Of a stretch of DNA of 64,000 nt, positions 29,698 through 64,000 are shown piece by piece. Numbering within the stretch: the stretch's first letter is position 1; each line of letters opens with the position of its first letter. The position numbers were made by a program, and so were the translations under genes. This DNA is from a virus, in IMG/VR virus record IMGVR_UViG_3300023112_000009, positions 32,001 to 96,000 of that record, one strand, 5' to 3'. The notes below the pieces were generated by a model. It saw only the letters and a program-made list of their open reading frames with translations, was not told the origin of the DNA and searched no databases.

Positions 29698-30117
29698 TTA
29701 GAAGAGTTGTTCGTCAGTACCGCCTTCGCCACCACCAGTTGTGGCAGGAACCTTTTCACCGGGTTCGTCACCGCCCACGCTGGGAGCCCCGGAACCACCG
29801 CTGTTGCCAACGAAGAAGAAACCATTGACGTTTTCAAGCTGAACTTCTAGCTTGGTACGCTTCTCGCCTTCGTCGTTCGTCCAACTGTTCGGGATAAGAT
29901 TGCCCCTGATAAGGATTTGCTTACCTTTTTCAAGGTGCTTGCCCATGATCTCGGCCTGCTTGCCAAAACCAACACAGTCCACGAAGGTAGTGGTCTTGCG
30001 ATCACCGAAGCCATTGTTAACAGCAATGGTAAATCGTACGACGTTATTTTCTTGACCCATCACCTTGGGGTCATCAACAAGGTTGCCTTGGGCAATAAAT
30101 TGATTGAGATTACTCAT
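29698..30117 (-). CDS. ssb: single-stranded DNA-binding protein
   Basis: NQFIAQGNLVDDP, FTIAVN, FVDCVGFGKQAE, Gly-rich linker, acidic tail DEQLF. Confidence 0.92.
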   Translation of the reverse strand: MSNLNQFIAQGNLVDDPKVMGQENNVVRFTIAVNNGFGDRKTTTFVDCVGFGKQAEIMGKHLEKGKQILIRGNLIPNSWTNDEGEKRTKLEVQLENVNGFFFVGNSGGSGAPSVGGDEPGEKVPATTGGGEGGTDEQLF

Positions 30118-54852: not shown

Positions 54853-55013
54853 GCACGGACGAAATGAATGCGATCCTAGGCCCGTGTCCTATTTGCAAAA
54901 AGGTCAAGTGGTGGTATAATGACTTGCCGCTTAGGGCCTTCTGCTGGGGATCACCAGACGACGAACACAAAGAGGTGTCCAGGGTGGCACCAACACAACG
55001 CAAGTACGCATGA
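54849..55013 (+). CDS. small hypothetical protein
   Basis: ATGA-coupled; CPIC motif. Confidence 0.45.
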   Translation: MSTDEMNAILGPCPICKKVKWWYNDLPLRAFCWGSPDDEHKEVSRVAPTQRKYA

Positions 55014-55183
55014 AAGAACGAATCGAAGCTTTCTTGGCAGCCCTAGCAGCCGCGTCCTACTACGATCCTAGCTCGGATAGCTCAGAAGTATTTCAAGGTA
55101 TGTTCATCGAGCCCGATGGGGATTACATTGATAGACAAGAGTTGGAAGCATTAGTGAAAGAACATTTGACTTCCACCGATTAG
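55010..55183 (+). CDS. small acidic protein
   Basis: ATGA-coupled; MKERIEAFLAAL... Confidence 0.45.
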   Translation: MKERIEAFLAALAAASYYDPSSDSSEVFQGMFIEPDGDYIDRQELEALVKEHLTSTD

Positions 55184-55199
55184 GTGTTATACTGTAACC

Positions 55200-55430
55200 A
55201 TGAGCGAACAAATCACAATCACAGAGAAGGTCCGCATTGGACTGGACGAACTGATCGCAGACTACAAAGCCTGTTGGTCATGGCAACACGAAAGCTTCTA
55301 TTCCTTCCTGAGTGAGAAGGTGGCAGAAAAACTGGATCGTGAACTGGACAACTTCCAGGTTATGTGCTACTCTGTAGTAGGTCACGAACACGACGCCGTT
55401 ATCTTTGAAGTCGAGAGGTACGAAGAATGA
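55200..55430 (+). CDS. hypothetical protein
   Basis: ATG 6 nt after TATACT. Confidence 0.6.
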   Translation: MSEQITITEKVRIGLDELIADYKACWSWQHESFYSFLSEKVAEKLDRELDNFQVMCYSVVGHEHDAVIFEVERYEE

Positions 55431-55627
55431 CACTACGCTGCAAAACCTGCAACTCAAGCGACGTTCGGCAAGAGTGGACGGCCATGATTGACCCGAACGA
55501 CGACGATTGCATGAAGGACTTTGACCCCACCACGTTGGAGTACAATGAGTTTGAGTACTGTCTTGACTGCGAAGACACGACGGACACCTACGACGACACG
55601 ATGAAAGACTTCAACTATTACGCTTGA
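55427..55627 (+). CDS. acidic zinc-ribbon protein
   Basis: CKTC...CLDC, D/E-rich. Confidence 0.6.
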   Translation: MTLRCKTCNSSDVRQEWTAMIDPNDDDCMKDFDPTTLEYNEFEYCLDCEDTTDTYDDTMKDFNYYA

Positions 55628-55656
55628 CATTCTCTGTTTTCAAGCTATACTAGAGC

Positions 55657-55911
55657 ATGAAGAAAGAAAAACTAGCTCTCATCAAGGTCATGGACGAGTG
55701 TTTGTGTTCGCCTGATGGAATGAGCGACAACGCTTACACGGTAGCATACGCTGCACTCGAAGACGATGATGAGATCGTGGATATCTTGGAAGCCGTAGAG
55801 GCGACCGATGGACGGTTCTACTTTCCCGAGTGTCATGTGGGCATTGAGAACATGCTCCGCGTAGACGTTGGGAGCCGACACGAACAGGACGAGCAGCCGT
55901 CCGAGGGATAA
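55657..55911 (+). CDS. acidic hypothetical protein
   Basis: ATG 5 nt after TATACT. Confidence 0.6.
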   Translation: MKKEKLALIKVMDECLCSPDGMSDNAYTVAYAALEDDDEIVDILEAVEATDGRFYFPECHVGIENMLRVDVGSRHEQDEQPSEG

Positions 55912-56345
55912 GAACCCAGAACAGGCTGAAACGGTATCTCTCACGCTGGGGAGCGGTAAGGGGGTGCCTTGAAAGGCGGAAGACTAAGCATGGGGTCGTT
56001 TGAACCGCTAATACCTCCCGCGATGGATCGCCCCCGATACGCACGGTCGAGAGGTATACTGCCACAATTGTAGAAGGCTGAGAAAACCCTTTACCTCTTT
56101 TTAGAAGTGCGGGAAAAGACGTTACTGTAAAAATAGGCTTCTGCCATATTGGCATAGGGAAAACTTTTCCACGTCAATTTGGCAGGCTCCTGTAAGCTCG
56201 CCTACGGCCACGGGCAAAAACGCAGGTAGTATAGACACGCGGGTTTGCCGCCATGCCCGTACAGGGCCGCACAGGACGTGCGAATTTCCAGCAACAAAAT
56301 CCGAAATCCGTTTGCTTCTCCCGATTGTGGAGGTATAATGAAGGC

Positions 56346-56891
56346 ATGAAAGCAATCAATCAAGCCACCCTGATCGACACGATCAACGCCGTCAAGGGTG
56401 CCACGTTCGCCACGATCATCACCGAAACCGATGCCCGCCTCAAGAAAACGGGCAACCCCTTCGGTCCCGTCCGCAAGATTTCCCGCGTCAACGTTTGCCT
56501 CGGTTTCCAGTATGAGGCCGCTGTAAATCGTCAACGCATCCGTGAGGATTCCGAGGCCGATTTCGAGGCCCGTCCGCGTCAATGGGGCGAGCGTATCTCG
56601 GCCATGCTGATCGGGCACAAGGGACGGACCTATCTCGAAACCAAGGTCCAGCGTGCTCTCGAAACGTCCTACATCGACGCCACGGGCAAGGAACTCTCCA
56701 AGGAAGATGTTCGCCCCTTCCTTCCTGCACGCTCCAAGAGCCGTCAAGAGGTCGCGGACGAGGTTATCGTCCGAGACTACGCTCTCGATTCGATCCGCTC
56801 GCTGGCCTTCGGTGGCGAAACGTACCTCTTGACTCAAGCAACGGCACCCGTGGCCGTCAAGATCGCCCGCACTCAACCCGTCACGAAATAA
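56346..56891 (+). CDS. phage hypothetical protein (cassette gene)
   Basis: ATG 7 nt after TATAAT; followed by the repeat hairpin. Confidence 0.7.
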   Translation: MKAINQATLIDTINAVKGATFATIITETDARLKKTGNPFGPVRKISRVNVCLGFQYEAAVNRQRIREDSEADFEARPRQWGERISAMLIGHKGRTYLETKVQRALETSYIDATGKELSKEDVRPFLPARSKSRQEVADEVIVRDYALDSIRSLAFGGETYLLTQATAPVAVKIARTQPVTK

Positions 56892-56900
56892 AGCCGCCAG

Positions 56901-56920
56901 GAGGCCCCGCAAGGGGCCTC
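56901..56920 (+). terminator. GC-rich GNRA hairpin closing cassettes (8 copies)
   Basis: GAGGCCCC-GCAA-GGGGCCTC at 56901, 57533, 58083, 58887, 59391, 59910, 63493, variant at 62520; weak U-tract, so a terminator role is unproven. Confidence 0.6.
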
Positions 56921-57063
56921 TCTTGCGTTGTGCCGCGTCCTAGAAAATCCAAGGTAGTATAGACACGCGGGCGGGCGGGCGGTGGCCGTAGCGGGCAGCA
57001 CAGGAGCCTGAAATAAATAAGGTTTAGAGTTTGCATTTTCGAGTGGAGAGGGTATACTGTGGC

Positions 57064-57258
57064 ATGAGTAAAGCACACACATGGAATGGCGAGCCGCCCC
57101 GGCACATCGAATACGCTCGGAACCTCGCCACCCGCTTGGGGAGAGCTAACATCAGCACCCGTATCGGGATGCCGATCAAGAGGATCCCCGTCACTGAAAC
57201 CATTTCGGAGAAAACCAAACGCATTCTTGCCGAGTGCGATGCAATTCTCTGCAAGTAA
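57064..57258 (+). CDS. 64-aa cassette protein (paralog of 58247-58441)
   Basis: PRHIE.A.NLATRLG..ISTRIG..TETISEKT...LAECDAILCK. Confidence 0.7.
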   Translation: MSKAHTWNGEPPRHIEYARNLATRLGRANISTRIGMPIKRIPVTETISEKTKRILAECDAILCK

Positions 57259-57335
57259 ATCAGAAAAACAGTTTGCCTTTTCCACTGGGGAGGGTATACT
57301 GTAATTGTTCGAGAGAAAACAAACAAAGGAATGCA

Positions 57336-57524
57336 ATGGAATTCAAAGAATGGATGAAAGCGATGAACCGCCACATTTCCGCCAAAATCTGCTTGGATGC
57401 TGGCGACATGCCCGATCTGTGCTTTCGGGATATGTTCGAGGATGAAATGACGCCGAAAGAAGCGGCGGAAAACTCGCTCGAAATCTGGGCAGAACAAGGG
57501 GACGTTCCCTACGATCTGATCTAA
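57336..57524 (+). CDS. small cassette protein
   Basis: AAGGA SD; F.EWM..........DMPD..FRD.FEDEMTP.EAA. Confidence 0.65.
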   Translation: MEFKEWMKAMNRHISAKICLDAGDMPDLCFRDMFEDEMTPKEAAENSLEIWAEQGDVPYDLI

Positions 57525-57728
57525 CGCACTAGGAGGCCCCGCAAGGGGCCTCGCTTGCGTTGTGCCGAGACCTAGAAAATCCCGCGTGGCTTAGCCACAC
57601 GGGGTCAAGGTCCGTGCCCGTACAGGGCCGCACAGGAGGCCAAAAAAGAATTGGCTTTCTACTTGCATTTTCGAGCGGGGAGGGTATACTGTAGCAGATT
57701 CGAGGCCACTAACCAACGGAGTAACCGA

Positions 57729-58070
57729 ATGAATCAGAACATCATCAGCACCGATCAAGCCGCCAACCTCATTCACCAGAGCAACGGGACCGTGTTCACG
57801 GTCGGGTTCTACAAAAAGGGGAAAAAGAACGGGGAGGGCAAAAACGACTTCCGCGAAATGCGTGCTCGCCTCGGCAGCACGGTTCGCAAGGGGCTTGCGG
57901 GTGGCCCGCCCGCCTACAACCCTTCCGAGCACGGGCTTATCTGGGCCTACCTTATGGCGGGGGATGAGAACCGCGAAGAGGCCCGCAACCGCCGTAGCAT
58001 CCCGGTGAGCGGCATCGTGGAATTGAACATCGGTGGCGAGTCCTATCGGGTCGCCGGATCGCCCCACTAA
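57729..58070 (+). CDS. SH3/WYL-like fold phage protein
   Basis: GGAG SD; VFTVGFYKK...REM.ARLG...RRSIPV..I..L. Confidence 0.6.
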   Translation: MNQNIISTDQAANLIHQSNGTVFTVGFYKKGKKNGEGKNDFREMRARLGSTVRKGLAGGPPAYNPSEHGLIWAYLMAGDENREEARNRRSIPVSGIVELNIGGESYRVAGSPH

Positions 58071-58246
58071 AAAACACCGCAGGAGGCCCCGCAAGGGGCC
58101 TCTCTTGCGTTGTGCCGCGTCCTACAAAATCGTGCGTAGTATAGACACGCGGGCGAGCCGCCCGTGCCCGCACAGGGCAGCACAGGAGCCTGAAATAAAT
58201 AAGGTTTAGCGTTTGCTTTTCTAGCTCACGAGGGTATACTGTCAAC

Positions 58247-58441
58247 ATGAAAACAAAGAACATCACGGAGTACAAGGCTCCCCGTCACATCGAATTCGCA
58301 CAGAACCTCGCCACCCGTTTGGGCAAGGTGGGAATCAGCACCCGCATCGGAAGGCCGGTCAAGGTGGTGATCGTGACCGAAACCATTTCGGAGAAAACCC
58401 GCCGCGTGCTCGCTGAGTGCGATGCAATTCTCTGCAAGTAA
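58247..58441 (+). CDS. 64-aa cassette protein (paralog of 57064-57258)
   Basis: high identity to 57064-57258; ATG 6 nt after TATACT. Confidence 0.7.
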   Translation: MKTKNITEYKAPRHIEFAQNLATRLGKVGISTRIGRPVKVVIVTETISEKTRRVLAECDAILCK

Positions 58442-58521
58442 AATCCAGAAAACAGTTGCCCTTCCCGCTGGGGAGGGTATACTGTAACGGTTCGAGAGAC
58501 AGCAAACCAACGGAGACAACG

Positions 58522-58773
58522 ATGGAACACGACGACGGCCCGGAAGAGTTGTGGGATGATGCGGAAGAGTTCGAGCGTGACGAGCTTGCACGGTTCTTAG
58601 CGGCCTATCCCGATGGCTGGACATGTCAGGATTGCTCCTGCGAATACCTGCCGGGAGAATGCCATCCCGTCATGCCAGCCGAAGACCTAGACGGTTGGGT
58701 TGCTGGTGACGGCACGGTTTGTCCGCTGGGCCACGGATGCAAAGAGGACGAGGCCGAGGATCTGCCCTTCTGA
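58522..58773 (+). CDS. acidic Cys-rich protein ending EDEAEDLPF
   Basis: GGAG SD; CQDC, CH, CP.GH.C. Confidence 0.65.
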   Translation: MEHDDGPEELWDDAEEFERDELARFLAAYPDGWTCQDCSCEYLPGECHPVMPAEDLDGWVAGDGTVCPLGHGCKEDEAEDLPF

Positions 58774-58880
58774 TGGACGAGATAGAATTCTGCAAGAGGC
58801 AGGCGAAAGCCTGTCTCTTGTTTCTAGTGCTCTTGCCCGTGGGCGTTGTTGTCGCCGTGCTTTGGGTTTACGGTTTTTAG
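58773..58880 (+). CDS. 35-aa membrane peptide, copy 1
   Basis: TGATG coupling; MDEIEFCKRQAKACLLFLVLLPVGVVVAVLWVYGF. Confidence 0.6.
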   Translation: MDEIEFCKRQAKACLLFLVLLPVGVVVAVLWVYGF

Positions 58881-59049
58881 CCACAGGAGGCCCCGCAAGG
58901 GGCCTCGCTTGCGTTGTGCCGCGTCCTACAAAATCGTGCGTAGTATAGACACGCGGACAAGGGGCCGGTGGCCGTACACGCCAGCACAGGAGGCCAAAAG
59001 AAAAACCATTTGCTATTTGCTTTTTCAAGGGGTTGTGGTATACTGTGGC

Positions 59050-59277
59050 ATGGATGAACGACAAGAGCTTGAAGACGAATACAACGCCCGCTATGGCGAT
59101 CCTCGCCACTGCCCGCATCACCCGATGGTGCAGACCTCTTCGGGTTGCGGCAACTTCGATGCCCCTTGTGGGCTTTGCGAGTCCGAGATGGACGAGTACG
59201 ATACGGTGGATCCCGATTGGGTTCCCGAGCCGTGGGTTGCTCCCGAAGAGGACGAGGCCGAGGATCTGCCCTTCTGA
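59050..59277 (+). CDS. acidic Cys/His protein ending EDEAEDLPF
   Basis: ATG 5 nt after TATACT; CPHH...C..C. Confidence 0.65.
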   Translation: MDERQELEDEYNARYGDPRHCPHHPMVQTSSGCGNFDAPCGLCESEMDEYDTVDPDWVPEPWVAPEEDEAEDLPF

Positions 59278-59384
59278 TGGACGAGATAGAATTCTGCAAG
59301 AGGCAGGCGAAAGCCTGTCTCTTGTTTCTAGTGCTCTTGCCCGTGGGCGTTGTTGTCGCCGTGCTTTGGGTTTACGGTTTTTAG
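59277..59384 (+). CDS. 35-aa membrane peptide, copy 2
   Basis: identical to 58773-58880. Confidence 0.6.
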   Translation: MDEIEFCKRQAKACLLFLVLLPVGVVVAVLWVYGF

Positions 59385-59553
59385 CCACAGGAGGCCCCGC
59401 AAGGGGCCTCTCTTCCGTTCTCCCGCGTTCTACAAAATCGTGCGTAGTATAGACACGCGGGCGGGCGGGCCGTGCCCGTAGCGGGCCGCACAGGAGGTCA
59501 AAAAGATTTGGTTTTCCATTTGCTTTTCTAGCTTCCTAGGGTATAATGTAAAC

Positions 59554-59682
59554 ATGAACAACAAGGAAGACAAGCGGATCGGCAAGAAGGCACTGGGCCA
59601 CACTCCCCACTGCAAGTGGGGCCGCAAGAAAGCCAACAAGAAAAGCCGCAGTGTTGCGAAAAAGGAGTTGCACAATGTATAA
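59554..59682 (+). CDS. small basic peptide (42 aa)
   Basis: ATG 6 nt after TATAAT; K/R-rich. Confidence 0.5.
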   Translation: MNNKEDKRIGKKALGHTPHCKWGRKKANKKSRSVAKKELHNV

Positions 59683-59902
59683 CGACGATTGGATGGATCC
59701 CGAGCCCGAGGAAGAGGTTGAGCCCATCAACCCCGAAGGGGACAAGGGACCGAACTACCTCCCCGACCCCGACCTTGACGGTCCCTACAAGGGTCCACCC
59801 GTGGGCACCTATGCCTACACCGCTTGGCTGATGGCTCAATCGGGCATGGATCCTGACGAGGCCGACGCCTGGAAGGACGAGATGAAAGAGCGAGATTTTT
59901 AG
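59675..59902 (+). CDS. small acidic protein
   Basis: AAGGAG SD; D/E/P-rich. Confidence 0.6.
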   Translation: MYNDDWMDPEPEEEVEPINPEGDKGPNYLPDPDLDGPYKGPPVGTYAYTAWLMAQSGMDPDEADAWKDEMKERDF

Positions 59903-60112
59903 TCAACAGGAGGCCCCGCAAGGGGCCTCTTCTGCTTTGTGTCGCATCCTACAAAATCGCAGGTAGCTTAGCCACGCACGATTGAGGCCACGCCCGCACG
60001 CGGCAGCACAGGCAGCCACAGGGCAAACAAAAGAAATCACAAATACCATTTGCTTTTTCCAGCGGTTGTGGTATACTCTCGGTGGATTCAACAACAGCAA
60101 CGGAGACAAGAC

Positions 60113-60292
60113 ATGCAAATCACCATCACCACGATTGACGACTCGGACGACGACTGCCGCAGGACCACCTACGAGACCCGCGTGGACGGCAAGCTCTACA
60201 CGCTCGCCGCGTGCTCCCTTCGAGGGGAAGGCGTTGAGGAACGTGCTCGCGAGTTGTTCGGTGACGACGTGGAAATCGTTTGGGAATTCTAA
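60113..60292 (+). CDS. small protein (paralog of 61627-61833)
   Basis: GGAG SD; DDDCRR, VDGK.Y, ERARELFG.DVE. Confidence 0.65.
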   Translation: MQITITTIDDSDDDCRRTTYETRVDGKLYTLAACSLRGEGVEERARELFGDDVEIVWEF

Positions 60293-60366
60293 AGAAAGGA
60301 CTTGCATCTGCCCGATACAGTGGTATACTGTTAGTGAGTCAAGGAAACAACACAACGGAGACAACA

Positions 60367-60582
60367 ATGAACGAGCAAAACGAAATCGGCGGCGACCTTC
60401 AAGACGAGTACACCGCCATTCAAGAGGCCGAGCTTCTCGAAGAGAGTCCGATCATGGACCTCACCGATCAAGACTTGGAGGGCTGGTATCAGGAATGGCT
60501 CTCCGAGCAGGACGATCCCGCGAGCATCGACCCGGACTTTTACGATCCCCGCGTGGACTTCGGCCCCGATCCCCGCGACTAG
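60367..60582 (+). CDS. very acidic small protein
   Basis: GGAG SD; about one third D/E with only two R and no K. Confidence 0.65.
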   Translation: MNEQNEIGGDLQDEYTAIQEAELLEESPIMDLTDQDLEGWYQEWLSEQDDPASIDPDFYDPRVDFGPDPRD

Positions 60583-60793
60583 CACACTTGTTGCTTCTCT
60601 CCTATGCTCCCTGGCGATTTAGGTCGTCAGGGGGCCTTTCCATGTGCCTAGGAGGCCGCAGGACGAGGGCTGCAAAAATCAAGGTAGCTTAGCCACGCAG
60701 GGTGAAGGCCCGTGCCCGTACAGGGCAGCACAGGAGCCCAAAAGAAATCACAAATGGAATTTGCTTTCTAGCCAATTGGGAGTATTATTGGGC

Positions 60794-61270
60794 ATGAGAA
60801 ACAAGCAACAGATTCAGGGCCAAGCGAGGGCCATCCTGAACAAACTCGCCCCGCAGTACCCCGTGCTGGCAAACCTGCCGATTCGCATTTCGACCCGTAT
60901 GACACGGGCCGCTGGTCAGGCTTCCTGGCGAGGTGGTATCCCTGTCGAGATCACCCTTTCGCTCCCTTTTTTCGCAGATGAGGCGAACGACCTACATCGT
61001 ACCGTAACGCATGAGGCGGCTCATATCGTCGCTGGCCACGCTGCTGGTCATGGCCCCACGTGGAAGGCTGTACACCGTAGCATGGGCGGCAAAGGCGACC
61101 GCTGCCACACTATGAGCCTTGCGGAAGGTTTCAAGCATACTCCCCGCAAGCGTGCCCCGCGTGTCGAGGTGACTTGCCCCAAGTGTAGCCAACCGATGCT
61201 GCTGGGGCCTACGCAAGCCAAGAAGGCACAACGGGGCTATCGCTACACGCACGCACGCTGCCCGAGATAG
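60794..61270 (+). CDS. SprT-like zinc metalloprotease
   Basis: RMTRAAGQA, HEAAH, GHGPTWK, CH, C-terminal CPKC. Confidence 0.85.
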   Translation: MRNKQQIQGQARAILNKLAPQYPVLANLPIRISTRMTRAAGQASWRGGIPVEITLSLPFFADEANDLHRTVTHEAAHIVAGHAAGHGPTWKAVHRSMGGKGDRCHTMSLAEGFKHTPRKRAPRVEVTCPKCSQPMLLGPTQAKKAQRGYRYTHARCPR

Positions 61271-61329
61271 GGTAAAGAAAAATCCCTTCTCCCGCTTGAC
61301 TTCAAGCGGGGGGAGGGTATACTGCAAGC

Positions 61330-61539
61330 ATGAAAGAACAAACAACATTCGTCCTTCGCAACACGGGCACCTCGCGATTCGTCAAGACGAGCCCCCACGA
61401 GTTCCTTGACGAGAACTTTGTCGAGGGGTGGGATAACCTCGCGGCTCGTGGTGCTCTGACCTTCGGGACGCACGAGGCGGCTCTGATCGCCAAGGATGCT
61501 GACCCCGATGGCTGCTCTCTCGCTGTCGAGGAAATCTGA
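61330..61539 (+). CDS. small hypothetical protein
   Basis: ATG 6 nt after TATACT. Confidence 0.6.
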   Translation: MKEQTTFVLRNTGTSRFVKTSPHEFLDENFVEGWDNLAARGALTFGTHEAALIAKDADPDGCSLAVEEI

Positions 61540-61626
61540 TAAACAAAACCCTTTTCCCGCTTGACATTCGGCGGGGATGGGGTATACTGTCAGCGTTCAA
61601 GGAAACAACAGCCAAGGAAACAAGCC

Positions 61627-61833
61627 ATGAAACTTCAAATCGAATACAACGACGCCTGCCGCAGGACCACCTACGAGTCTGACGACGACTGCCGCCGCGT
61701 GGACTACTGCGTGACCGTGGACGGCAAGGAATACTGCCTTTCCGGTTCTGCTCTCGGCAACGAGCACAACGACCGCGAAGCCACCGAGCGTGCTCGCGAG
61801 TTGTTCGGCCCCGACGTTGAGCTGATCTTCTAA
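61627..61833 (+). CDS. small protein (paralog of 60113-60292)
   Basis: AAGGA SD; shared CRRTTYE, DDDCRR, ERARELFG. Confidence 0.65.
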   Translation: MKLQIEYNDACRRTTYESDDDCRRVDYCVTVDGKEYCLSGSALGNEHNDREATERARELFGPDVELIF

Positions 61834-62121
61834 GAGGCTGCCAGAATGGCGGGGGCCACGGCCCCCGCTGAGCCCCCTGCCTGCCCCCACACGGGGAGCG
61901 GCCCCGACCCCCTGTGGCTTAGCCACGCGGGCACGGCACTCGTGCCGGTAGAGCGTATCCCAGGCCCCTTGTGATGCCTGCTATGCGTTACGCTTTTTCG
62001 GTTTCTCGCTTGACTTCTGCCAATCGCATGGTATACTGTGGCATGAAGTTGAGCAAAGAAGATATGGAGTTCGCCCACGACACTATCCACGGTGCCCGCG
62101 AATACGCCGAATCCGCCTAAC

Positions 62122-62292
62122 ATGTACTCACTGACCTACAACGGAGAGCAACTGGCCGAGTGGACTATCCCACGCGGTTGGCTGCCCTCCTTTGGTACGC
62201 TGCTGGCCGTGAAATATCACGGTAGGCTGACGCTATTTCGTGCGATGGGAATTCAAGAAAGGGAAATTCTGCTTGACATCTACCAATCGTAG
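62122..62292 (+). CDS. small hypothetical protein
   Basis: follows a 25-codon leaderless ORF at 62043-62120. Confidence 0.45.
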   Translation: MYSLTYNGEQLAEWTIPRGWLPSFGTLLAVKYHGRLTLFRAMGIQEREILLDIYQS

Positions 62293-62306
62293 GGTATACT
62301 GTGGGC

Positions 62307-62504
62307 ATGAAGCAACAAGAAACAACCGAGTTCGCACAAGCCGTCGCCGGGAACTGTGACCGTTGGGTGCCCGCCTGTGGTGGCCACGAGCAACCGTTCA
62401 CCCACAACGGCACTCGCTATCTGTACTGCTTCAACCCAAACAAGCACGAGCACGGGTATATCAATCTGGACACCGATATTCTGGAGACCACGCTGCCCTT
62501 CTGA
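62307..62504 (+). CDS. small hypothetical protein ending LPF
   Basis: ATG 6 nt after TATACT; WVPACGG.E.PF...YLYC.N....H.Y..LDTD. Confidence 0.65.
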   Translation: MKQQETTEFAQAVAGNCDRWVPACGGHEQPFTHNGTRYLYCFNPNKHEHGYINLDTDILETTLPF

Positions 62505-62683
62505 ATCCGAGACCACGAGGAGGCCCCGAAAGGGGTCTCTCGTGCGTTGTGCCGCGTCCTACAAAATCGCACGTAGTATAGACACGTTGGCTTGCGGTTC
62601 GTGGCCACCACGGGCTGCACAGGAGGCCAAAAAGAATTACCATTTACAATTTGCTTTTTCCAGCGTGGAGGGTATACTCTAGC

Positions 62684-62830
62684 ATGGTTGAAGAAAACAA
62701 AGCACTGACGAAGGCGGGCTGGGTTCTGGTTCGCATCACTGACGCCCAAGGCTTGGTTGTCTTTTGTGAGACGGTCAGGGACGAGGACGCCGAAAGCATC
62801 ATCGCCAAGTTCCGCAACACAATTCGCTAA
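62684..62830 (+). CDS. small hypothetical protein (48 aa)
   Basis: ATG 5 nt after TATACT. Confidence 0.55.
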   Translation: MVEENKALTKAGWVLVRITDAQGLVVFCETVRDEDAESIIAKFRNTIR

Positions 62831-62870
62831 AACAACTGGACACGCCCCCGAAAGGGGGCTATACTCTGAC

Positions 62871-63053
62871 ATGCACATTCACGACCCCGACTGGACAGGC
62901 CCTATCTGTCGCAACTGTACCGCCCCCGTCAAGAGCCTGCACATGATGGCACAGCATCAAGAGGCTTGGAACAAAGCGAAAGCGAAAGATTCCGAAGCAA
63001 AGGAACCGCCGCACTTCTGCTCAAACCAGTGCGTCTACGACAAGTACATGTAA
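62871..63053 (+). CDS. small zinc-finger protein
   Basis: CRNC...FCSNQC; ATG 5 nt after TATACT. Confidence 0.6.
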   Translation: MHIHDPDWTGPICRNCTAPVKSLHMMAQHQEAWNKAKAKDSEAKEPPHFCSNQCVYDKYM

Positions 63054-63288
63054 AACAAGGCCCCTAGCTCTGCTGGATCACAACAAGAGAACCGGCTCTC
63101 TCTGTTCACTGATCGAAGCCGCTAGGGGCCTTTTCTACCCACCTGAGAGCCCGCGTGCCGAGCCCTACAAAATCGCAGGTAGCTTAGCCACGTTGGCTTG
63201 CAGCCGGTGGCCGCACACGCCCGCACAGGAGGCCAAAAGAAATCACAAATGGTATTTGCTTTTTCGAGCGTGGAGGGTATACTCTGAC

Positions 63289-63483
63289 ATGCAAGAACAA
63301 ACAAACCCCTTTGAAAAGGGAACTGACAAACACGCCCAATGGGAAGAGTTGGATTGTCACGAGTGCCGAGCCGCACTGAGTGATTCGATGTATCCCCGCC
63401 ATAGTGGCAGCCGCAACTGCAATAGTGGCAGTATCGCCTCTGGCGGCAACAGATCGCACTGCACTTGCGACACTTGTTTCTAA
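63289..63483 (+). CDS. small Cys/His-rich protein
   Basis: CHEC..P.H..S..C.SG.....HCTCDTCF; ATG 5 nt after TATACT. Confidence 0.65.
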   Translation: MQEQTNPFEKGTDKHAQWEELDCHECRAALSDSMYPRHSGSRNCNSGSIASGGNRSHCTCDTCF

Positions 63484-63655
63484 ACACCGCAGGAGGCCCC
63501 GCAAGGGGCCTCTTTTGCGTTGTGCCGAGAGCTACAAAATCGCAGGTAGTATAGACACGTTGGCAAGAGGTCGGTGGCCACCACGGGCCGCACAGGAGCT
63601 TTCTCTTTTTCTTATTTCAAGCTTGCATTCTTGTCAATTGAGGGTATACTCTGGC

Positions 63656-63763
63656 ATGGATACAACAAAAGAAAATCTCAAGGTCGGCCTCGGAATCCTC
63701 CTGCCCTTCTACGTGATCGCGGCGGCCTACTGCTTCGAATTGTTTATGCGATATTTCGCTTGA
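63656..63763 (+). CDS. 35-aa membrane peptide
   Basis: ATG 5 nt after TATACT; single TM segment. Confidence 0.55.
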   Translation: MDTTKENLKVGLGILLPFYVIAAAYCFELFMRYFA

Positions 63764-63826
63764 CATTTCGAGCGGAGAGGGTATACTCTCACTGTTCAAG
63801 AGCAACCGAAACCAACAGAAAGCAAC

Positions 63827-64000
63827 ATGGAACAAGTAAACGCAAGCGGGACCGGACTTCGAGGATACGTGGACGTGAGCTACAATCGACTCGTGGAAGT
63901 GTTCGGGGAGCCGCACTACCGCATGGGCGACAAGACCACCGTGGAGTGGTCCTTCGAGCACGAGGGTACGCGATTCACCCTGTACGACTACAAGTGGCAA
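63827..64000 (+). CDS. phage hypothetical protein (truncated by the window end)
   Basis: GT.L.GYV..SY..LVEVFGEP...DKT.VEW......FTLYDYK. Confidence 0.65.
   Translation, partial: MEQVNASGTGLRGYVDVSYNRLVEVFGEPHYRMGDKTTVEWSFEHEGTRFTLYDYKWQ

Follow-up and report, generated by a model that had tools for sequence, protein, structure and literature searches.

The IMG/VR virus record IMGVR_UViG_3300023112_000009 (125,609 nt; 69% complete by CheckV) comes from a large phage. Here we describe small genes in a 64,000-nt stretch of it (bases 32001-96000 of the record, referred to below as the window) whose products end in a peptide resembling the C-terminal tip of SSB, the bacterial protein that binds single-stranded DNA (ssDNA). 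Three open reading frames (ORFs) are concerned. A first-pass annotation of the window had noted that two of them, ORF A and ORF B, carry the same tail, EDEAEDLPF, on unrelated Cys/His-rich bodies, that a third, ORF C, ends DILETTLPF, and that the phage's own SSB ends differently, in DEQLF. The sequence bears out each of these points, and the features concerned are as follows:

59050-59277, plus strand: ORF B, 75 amino acids (aa), ATG to stop; member of a putative zinc-knuckle family, with an SSB-tip-like C-terminus
59039-59044, plus strand: -10-like element TATACT, 5 nt ahead of the ORF B ATG
59110-59178, plus strand: predicted CHCC zinc-knuckle core of ORF B, C21-x2-H24-x15-C40-x2-C43
59248-59274, plus strand: SSB-tip-like tail of ORF B, EDEAEDLPF
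58522-58773, plus strand: ORF A, 83 aa, ATG to stop
62307-62504, plus strand: ORF C, 65 aa, ends TTLPF; belongs to a separate small family (WVPACGG...YINLDTD)
29698-30117, minus strand: phage SSB (PF00436, E 5e-20), ends TDEQLF

Upwards of a dozen bacterial enzymes, active in replication, repair and recombination, are brought to ssDNA by a single peptide, the SSB tip, which is already an antibacterial target. Among those that use it in E. coli are exonuclease I, RecQ, PriA, RecO, RecG and the chi subunit, and SSB partners read the free carboxylate of the last Phe. According to two published accounts, the tip (SSB-Ct) is a conserved octapeptide whose binding to partners such as exonuclease I and RecO requires the terminal IPF, with the Asp residues setting its affinity (PMC10143822; PMC5872125). 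ORF A ends KEDEAEDLPF and ORF B EEDEAEDLPF; both thus have a terminal Phe at the very C-terminus within an LPF ending, preceded by E-D at -5/-4, and six of the last nine residues are Asp or Glu. Such ends are rare in this phage: only 5 of 1336 six-frame ORFs of at least 30 aa in the whole record end in PF, and A, B and C account for all three with LPF. None of the three has a Pfam (E<=0.1), PHROG or NCBIfam match, the phage SSB being recovered as PF00436 in the same Pfam scan. The first-pass annotation had also held that these proteins have no OB fold, which agrees both with the lack of a PF00436 match and with structural models, discussed below, in which no OB barrel is seen.

ORF B proves to belong to a large unannotated family, which we take to consist of CHCC zinc-knuckle proteins with a DDDIPF-type C-terminus and which would thus place an SSB docking tip on a new, non-SSB scaffold. 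A word-index search found seven homologues that share the sequence QELEDEYNAxYGDPRRCPxH...TSSxxGxFDAPCGxCE with ORF B, and five of these end in an acidic-xPF motif (EDLPF three times, DDIPF and EETPF), even though the stretch between core and tip varies in length and is not alignable. A profile built from ORF B and the seven homologues, run against 1.84 billion cluster representatives, picked out 415 representatives (50%-identity clusters) at E<=1e-3, and 256 of these also passed E<=1e-10; the members examined are the best 150 of the 415. A metagenome scan added 53 loci, of which five were spurious or fragmentary and three run off the contig, leaving 45 complete family ORFs. Pooling 152 proteins with the complete ORFs from the metagenome loci and removing duplicates gave 163 distinct members with the core motif: 146 long members, with at least 17 aa after the core, and 17 short ones.

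No name attaches to this family in the resources consulted. Pfam gave no match for 25 members and PHROG no credible one for the same number, the single hit (E 0.0014) covering 15 N-terminal residues of the member P0093; NCBIfam gave none for 11 proteins (A, B, C, six ORF B-family members and two further proteins, P0164 and P0165, described below). All ten representatives looked up come from metagenomes only, and any that are named are called 'hypothetical protein'. Searches of cultured phages with tblastn returned only noise for ORFs A and B (best E 2-8) and no match for the family members P0132 and P0147, whilst among the six-frame ORFs of phage T1 the best score against the family profile was E 0.79, and the only T1 protein found to end in FDDDIPF is the SSB-like gp27. 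No cultured phage carrying a family member was found in these searches, which stop short of an exhaustive profile search of cultured phages. The phages that carry the family are nevertheless diverse, with record sizes from 9.6 to 407 kb.

The conservation of the tip can be set against the sequence that precedes it. Of the 146 long members, 120 have a C-terminal Phe; the ending is PF in 92 and acidic-[ILMV]PF in 76. Taking the most frequent residue at each of the six final positions gives D (57), D (70), D (72), I (74), P (94) and F (120), which spells DDDIPF, the tip of E. coli SSB. Position -3 is Ile in 74 members and Leu in a further 19, position -2 is Pro in 94, and Asp or Glu occupies -4 in 101, -5 in 83 and -6 in 78. 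Of 69 members that end in PF, 39 have a hydrophobic or aromatic residue at -7 to -9, the counterpart of Phe172 in E. coli SSB. Mean pairwise identity across 110 members is 0.70 over 12 anchored core positions, falls to 0.08 in the 20 residues before the tip and rises again to 0.35 in the last six. The linker itself ranges from 18 to 100 aa, with a median of 46.

Counts from the raw loci agree: 38 of the 45 complete family ORFs end in Phe (31 in PF and 7 in another xxF) and seven do not. For comparison, a PF ending is found in 30 of the 1721 distinct six-frame ORFs that are at least 40 aa long in loci L002-L057; 22 of the 30 are family members and one is a true SSB (L015:4-366). In a tree of 116 members made with FastTree from the core only, the 23 members that do not end in Phe require 22 changes, so that they are scattered and form no clade. 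The tail therefore looks ancestral, with sporadic loss or truncated gene calls. The first-pass annotation had made conservation of the tail in homologues a test of its proposal: the result is positive for ORF B, in five of seven close homologues and most of the large family, and negative for ORFs A and C. In the contigs most closely related to the window (L005-7), the ORF B tail EDEAEDLPF is unchanged despite a 6-aa insertion immediately upstream.

As to the head of ORF B, across 121 aligned sequences C21, H24 and C43 are invariant and C40 is kept in at least 90%, and the C-x2-H-x15-C-x2-C arrangement is presumably a zinc site. The CHC2-type zinc finger of the DnaG and T7 primases has the pattern C-x2-H-x15-17-C-x2-C within the primase zinc-binding fold. 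We take the spacing in ORF B to recall that finger, although nothing tested supports membership: the C-x2-H-x15-C-x2-C spacing is present and conserved in the ORF B family, yet there is no Pfam, PDB-sequence or fold match. The protein is strongly acidic, with 22 Asp or Glu against three Lys or Arg in 75 aa, and the mean net charge in the family is about -0.155 per residue (133 members). AlphaFold2 models of ORF B (pLDDT 78) and of the family member P0047 (pLDDT 73) both comprise an N-terminal helix or coil, the knuckle, a confident helix and then coil without secondary structure to the C-terminus; neither contains an OB barrel. In the ORF B model, pLDDT is 85-92 over the first three 10-residue blocks. 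Matches to the head in the ESM Atlas are to unnamed viral clusters only (scores 0.83-0.84).

Several members depart from this simple architecture. In L065 (5485-6255) the family member is fused to an N-terminal GGWD..VVE.YED-type domain that is a separate small gene in L003 (4178-4402), the member in L009 (3001-3756) has a 200-aa C-terminal extension and no tip, and P0093 is fused to an extra domain. As to neighbours, a gene of the GP88 family (PF17338) adjoins the family member in some marine loci only, and in the metagenomic contig L018 the gene for a PARP-like protein (177-1727), with WGR, PARP regulatory and PARP catalytic domains, stands about 1.2 kb upstream of a member ending DDDIPF.

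Similar ends are also seen outside the family, on two other small proteins from related contigs. P0164 (L003:5282-5710), a 142-aa protein of no known family encoded on the same contig as a relative of ORF C, ends GDPYDIPF and has one distant relative locus, L059. P0165 (L022:4276-4449) ends DPDCPF, and its N-terminus matches an acidic ORF in the window (60367-60582), which starts MNEQNEIGGDLQDE and ends DFGPDPRD; this may be another scaffold that sometimes has an xPF tip. Together, P0164 and P0165 hint that the tip occurs on several scaffolds.

How, then, did ORF A come by the same nine residues? The answer appears to lie in the DNA, in the following features:

58456-58483, plus strand: sigma-70-like promoter ahead of ORF A, TTGCCC, 16 nt, TATACT (a consensus scan gave one site against 0.6 expected)
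58512-58515: GGAG before the ORF A ATG
58744-58770, plus strand: ORF A tail EDEAEDLPF, resembling the SSB tip; within the 100%-identical repeat
58742-58906, plus strand: repeat copy 1, 165 nt, 100% identical to 59246-59410
59246-59410, plus strand: repeat copy 2, the same 165-nt segment
58773-58880, plus strand: micro-ORF copy 1, 35 aa, hydrophobic, MDEIEFCKRQAKACLLFLVLLPVGVVVAVLWVYGF; its start overlaps the ORF A stop (TGATG)
59277-59384, plus strand: micro-ORF copy 2, 35 aa, hydrophobic; overlaps the ORF B stop (TGATG)

A direct repeat (family D4) relates 58742-58999 to 59246-59503, with 240 of 258 nt identical and the tail codons at its 5' edge; the initial 165 nt are 100% identical and the earliest mismatch is at 58907. 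The 165-nt segment carries the last 9-10 codons of each gene, the 35-aa membrane micro-ORF and a terminator hairpin. Since the tail sits within a direct DNA repeat, its identity in A and B is not independent convergence.

Comparison with related contigs gives the direction of the transfer. The N-terminal, acidic 22 aa of ORF A recur in P0003-P0005, which diverge afterwards and have no tail. The Cys-rich body recurs only in P0002, with the likeness stopping at PLGHGC, exactly where the repeat starts. All these homologues of the body and N-terminus (P0002-P0005) lack the tail, and at the position of ORF A the closest related contigs have tail-less variants (L005, L006 and L008) or unrelated sequence (L007). 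ORF B and its micro-ORF, on the other hand, are retained in L005-7, the micro-ORF with a few C-terminal changes (L008 ends within ORF B). With the homologues of A tail-less and the ORF B/micro-ORF pair kept, it follows that B was the donor and that A gained its tail recently. ORF A is a mosaic gene limited to the present phage variant, its tail gained via the 165-nt duplication. The suggestion in the first-pass annotation that the tail is spread as a portable module therefore holds only for a DNA segment that also carries the micro-ORF and terminator, as seen in the A/B duplication. The micro-ORF was considered as a family-wide partner of the ORF B proteins and rejected: it follows B only in L005-7 and was not found after the other members examined (L005-L052).

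ORF C is a different matter. Its family keeps P-[PI]-F, but five of the six relatives have two extra residues after the Phe and the remaining one, with a different end, lacks PF; the tip of ORF C itself is preceded by non-acidic residues. As PF is C-terminal in none of the six relatives and the tip is not acidic, we do not count ORF C as a mimic of the SSB tail, contrary to what had first been proposed. It belongs to a different family, is probably no tip mimic and lies outside the mechanism considered below. In the related contig L013 (2521-3240) an ORF C-family gene (ending PFPPFLS) is directly upstream of an ORF B-family gene (ending EEDMPF), with an SprT-like gene and a gene with an ...AFEDWRDD motif close by; this arrangement points to an early gene set common to these contigs, its order reshuffled.

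With all three ORFs in view, one can ask whether the tails do anything at all, the identity of A and B being a by-product of duplication and the LPF ends being chance. The 165-nt duplication does indeed account for the A/B identity, and the LPF of ORF C looks incidental. For ORF B, however, this explanation is contradicted by a DDDIPF consensus across a family of 415 cluster representatives whose linkers are at random-level identity, and by the fact that most PF-ending ORFs in the loci (22/30) are family members; we give it almost no credence. In sum, the original interpretation as SSB-tail mimics is supported for B, gives way to duplication for A and is rejected for C; its further proposal, that host genome-maintenance enzymes are titrated or redirected, is an inference.

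The genes lie in a distinctive part of the phage genome. The phage encodes a ribonucleotide reductase, rIIA/rIIB, a nicotinamide phosphoribosyltransferase, an RNA ligase and a tRNA nucleotidyltransferase; a PHROG scan of its ORFs of 130 aa or more adds a primase, a DNA polymerase, an exonuclease and sigma factors of its own. A megablast search with window positions 56000-64000 found no near relative amongst GenBank phages. G+C content is raised across 55-64 kb of the window, where (positions 55000-64000) nine copies of a ~180-nt intergenic module split the region into cassettes of one or two genes. The module contains a terminator hairpin (GGAGGCCCCGCAAGGGGCCTC), a conserved TAGTATAGACACGC box, a second GC-rich hairpin and promoter-like sequences, and is probably the driver of the recombination behind ORF A. 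In several cassettes the ATG is only 5-6 nt past a GGTATACT -10 element (59039-59052, which is ORF B, 62670-62686, 63275-63291 and 63642-63658), and repeat families D6 and D11 show the same GGTATACT-N5-ATG spacing. This suggests that ORF B and similar micro-genes are read from leaderless or nearly leaderless mRNA; other cassettes, such as that of ORF A, have a leader of ~35 nt with GGAG. The array also includes two paralogous pairs of small genes (repeat families D5, D10 and D13): 57071-57258 and 58247-58441, encoding 62-64 aa with ...PRHIE[YF]A[RQ]NLATRLG...AECDAILCK, and 60113-60292 and 61627-61833, with CRRTTYE...ERARELFG in common. A protein with an SprT-like zinc metalloprotease domain (PF10263, E 3.6e-12) and a C-terminal Cys cluster is encoded among the early cassettes at 60794-61270.

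An array of small promoter-led genes such as that around ORF B would be typical of early host-takeover genes. Phage SSBs are known to trigger some defence systems, and an early gene could conceivably act here, the tail or the whole protein occupying or shielding a defence component that monitors SSB or SSB-coated ssDNA. The early position is what speaks for such a role; against it, no defence-related domain or neighbour was found, and a full-text literature search gave nothing linking the SSB tip itself to defence sensing. We consider it highly improbable.

What does the ORF B protein resemble? Like bacterial SSB (...DFDDDIPF), the family has a terminal Phe, a preceding [I/L]-Pro, a run of Asp/Glu and a flexible, non-conserved linker. 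Of the hallmarks of the SSB family, then, the disordered linker and the acidic [I/L]PF tip are present and the OB-fold domain is absent. Instead of an OB-fold tetramer, the tip is carried by a putative CHCC knuckle of ~45 residues with no PF00436 match, and the strong acidity of the proteins makes ssDNA binding unlikely; they are presumably monomeric and free in the cytoplasm. The closest precedent comes from prophage DUF669 ssDNA-binding proteins, which carry a DDDIPF C-terminus and which, the authors suggest, mimic SSB to contact host proteins (PMC13687109). On that account the two cases are alike in that a mobile-element protein outside PF00436 has a host-type SSB tip, but the DUF669 proteins are genuine ssDNA binders whereas the ORF B family shows no sign of an ssDNA-binding domain. 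Outside subscription-only papers, the full-text literature search did not turn up any paper describing an SSB tip on a non-SSB phage protein; the DUF669 paper comes nearest.

We propose that ORF B encodes an early, strongly acidic zinc-binding protein made up of a CHCC knuckle, a flexible and rapidly evolving linker and, at the C-terminus, a peptide that imitates the SSB tip (acidic, [I/L]-P-F-COOH). The free tail would first enter the pocket by which host SSB-interacting proteins hold the SSB tip; the zinc knuckle would then add a second contact or a steric block; and competition with host SSB would, early in infection, detach at least one of the host's genome-maintenance enzymes from ssDNA, the protein acting as a decoy or inhibitor. 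In ORF A, the docking peptide may have been given another Cys-rich head, unrelated to that of ORF B. Docking into the pockets of SSB partners is favoured because the only conserved feature beyond the 45-residue head is a C-terminal peptide on a variable leash. These pockets are most likely the host's, since the phage SSB has a different tip (DEQLF), the phage has its own replisome and ORF B is part of a cassette array of the host-takeover type. An inhibitory role is favoured and is in keeping with ORF B being early, promoter-led, very acidic and small. On balance, we rate as about even the prospect that ORF B is a decoy or inhibitor docking on the host's SSB-partner proteins. A complex prediction for ORF B (alignment A2), with exonuclease I of E. 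coli standing in for the partner, scored 0.28 against a mark of 0.32, with controls not included, and speaks neither for nor against docking.

The same conserved tip could also serve to recruit. In this alternative, the main rival, the protein is an adaptor: the knuckle binds a phage component or DNA, and the tail brings host SSB partners to phage forks for primer removal, restart or topoisomerase action. Tip conservation supports an adaptor just as it does an inhibitor. Phage forks would be coated by an SSB whose non-host DEQLF tail cannot recruit host partners, and neither RNase H nor topoisomerase nor ligase is among the assignments from PHROG scans of the ORFs of at least 130 aa and 21 others, though many ORFs are unassigned and 69% of the genome is represented. 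The fusion of the head to other domains in some members (L009, L065 and P0093) would also suit an adaptor. The argument from the phage SSB is weakened by L015, where the phage SSB is already host-like (GDVPF) and stands beside a family member ending YDLPF; in five other family-bearing virus records PF00436 gave no phage SSB match, hence no tip comparison. The strong acidity of ORF B, moreover, argues against DNA binding by the head, and no phage neighbour is conserved across loci. Overall we regard an adaptor as rather unlikely.

Several observations weigh against the proposal that the ORF B family docks on host SSB partners, some bearing on the tip and others on the head. EDEAEDLPF has an Ala at -5 (counted back from the terminal Phe), and the tails of A and B have no hydrophobic residue at -7 to -9 equivalent to Phe172 of E. 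coli SSB. Some family members end in ILF, ICF, IDF, IEF or VGF instead of xPF, which is looser than the canonical tip. A terminal Phe is missing from 26 of the 146 long members and from all 17 short ones, which end soon after the core, and seven of ten family loci in IMG/VR have no tail; some tail-less members could be truncated gene calls. As the tail is not universal, the head must have a function of its own, and that function is not explained by any match: a profile search of PDB sequences gave none (best E 1.1), nor did Foldseek against PDB (E<=0.001), VIA-align wide (Z>=2) or a search of BFVD (E<=0.001). Clustering of 584 ORFs from 58 loci found no conserved neighbour beyond closely related contigs, and the core-only tree, built on ~45 residues, is poorly resolved.

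Precedent from phage T7 belongs with these points, for there the disordered acidic, Phe-ended tail of gp2.5 mediates docking on the phage polymerase (PMC12339929). Applied to ORF B, the tail would dock on a phage-encoded partner such as a polymerase, primase-helicase or recombinase, its likeness to SSB-Ct being a shared physico-chemical solution. The T7 gp4 helicase has the same kind of tail, so that two different T7 proteins target the same polymerase sites, which would parallel the presence of one tail on two bodies, A and B. Looser variants of the tip within the family (ILF, IDF, IEF) fit a partner of this kind, and there are phage proteins in contact with host SSB, lambda Red-beta being reported to interact with that of E. 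coli (PMC6393309). The T7 tails, however, work inside that phage's replisome and carry no [I/L]-P-F signature. In the present phage the tail of the SSB differs from that of A and B, and the replisome presumably reads this DEQLF tip. The consensus of the family matches DDDIPF exactly, and a common phage partner is unlikely given the very different phages (9.6 to 407 kb) and the lack of a shared neighbour. We therefore think a phage-encoded target improbable.

If the ORF B protein does act as a decoy, it would be the natural, phage-evolved counterpart of a known class of laboratory compounds. Synthetic SSB-Ct peptides, peptidomimetics and small molecules have been designed to interfere with SSB-partner interactions by filling the pocket for IPF on partners such as exonuclease I and RecO (PMC10143822); the proposed action of ORF B is the same, with the addition of a folded head. 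More broadly, the family may be a widespread set of natural SSB-tip mimics in which a zinc-knuckle head on a DDDIPF leash shuts down or commandeers the host SSB interactome, with recombination moving the tail to other heads such as ORF A and possibly P0164 and P0165; we advance this tentatively, with slightly more doubt than belief.

Were this correct, it would mean that phages attack or exploit the SSB hub by short-linear-motif mimicry. As evolved and probably high-affinity bivalent binders, these proteins could reveal which SSB partners matter in infection, whilst their natural variants (IPF, LPF, MPF, PPF, ILF and ICF) would give sequence rules for tip recognition across many hosts. They would also offer a natural template for inhibitors of SSB-partner interactions, and they would provide a function-level handle on a family of hundreds of cluster representatives annotated only as 'hypothetical protein'.

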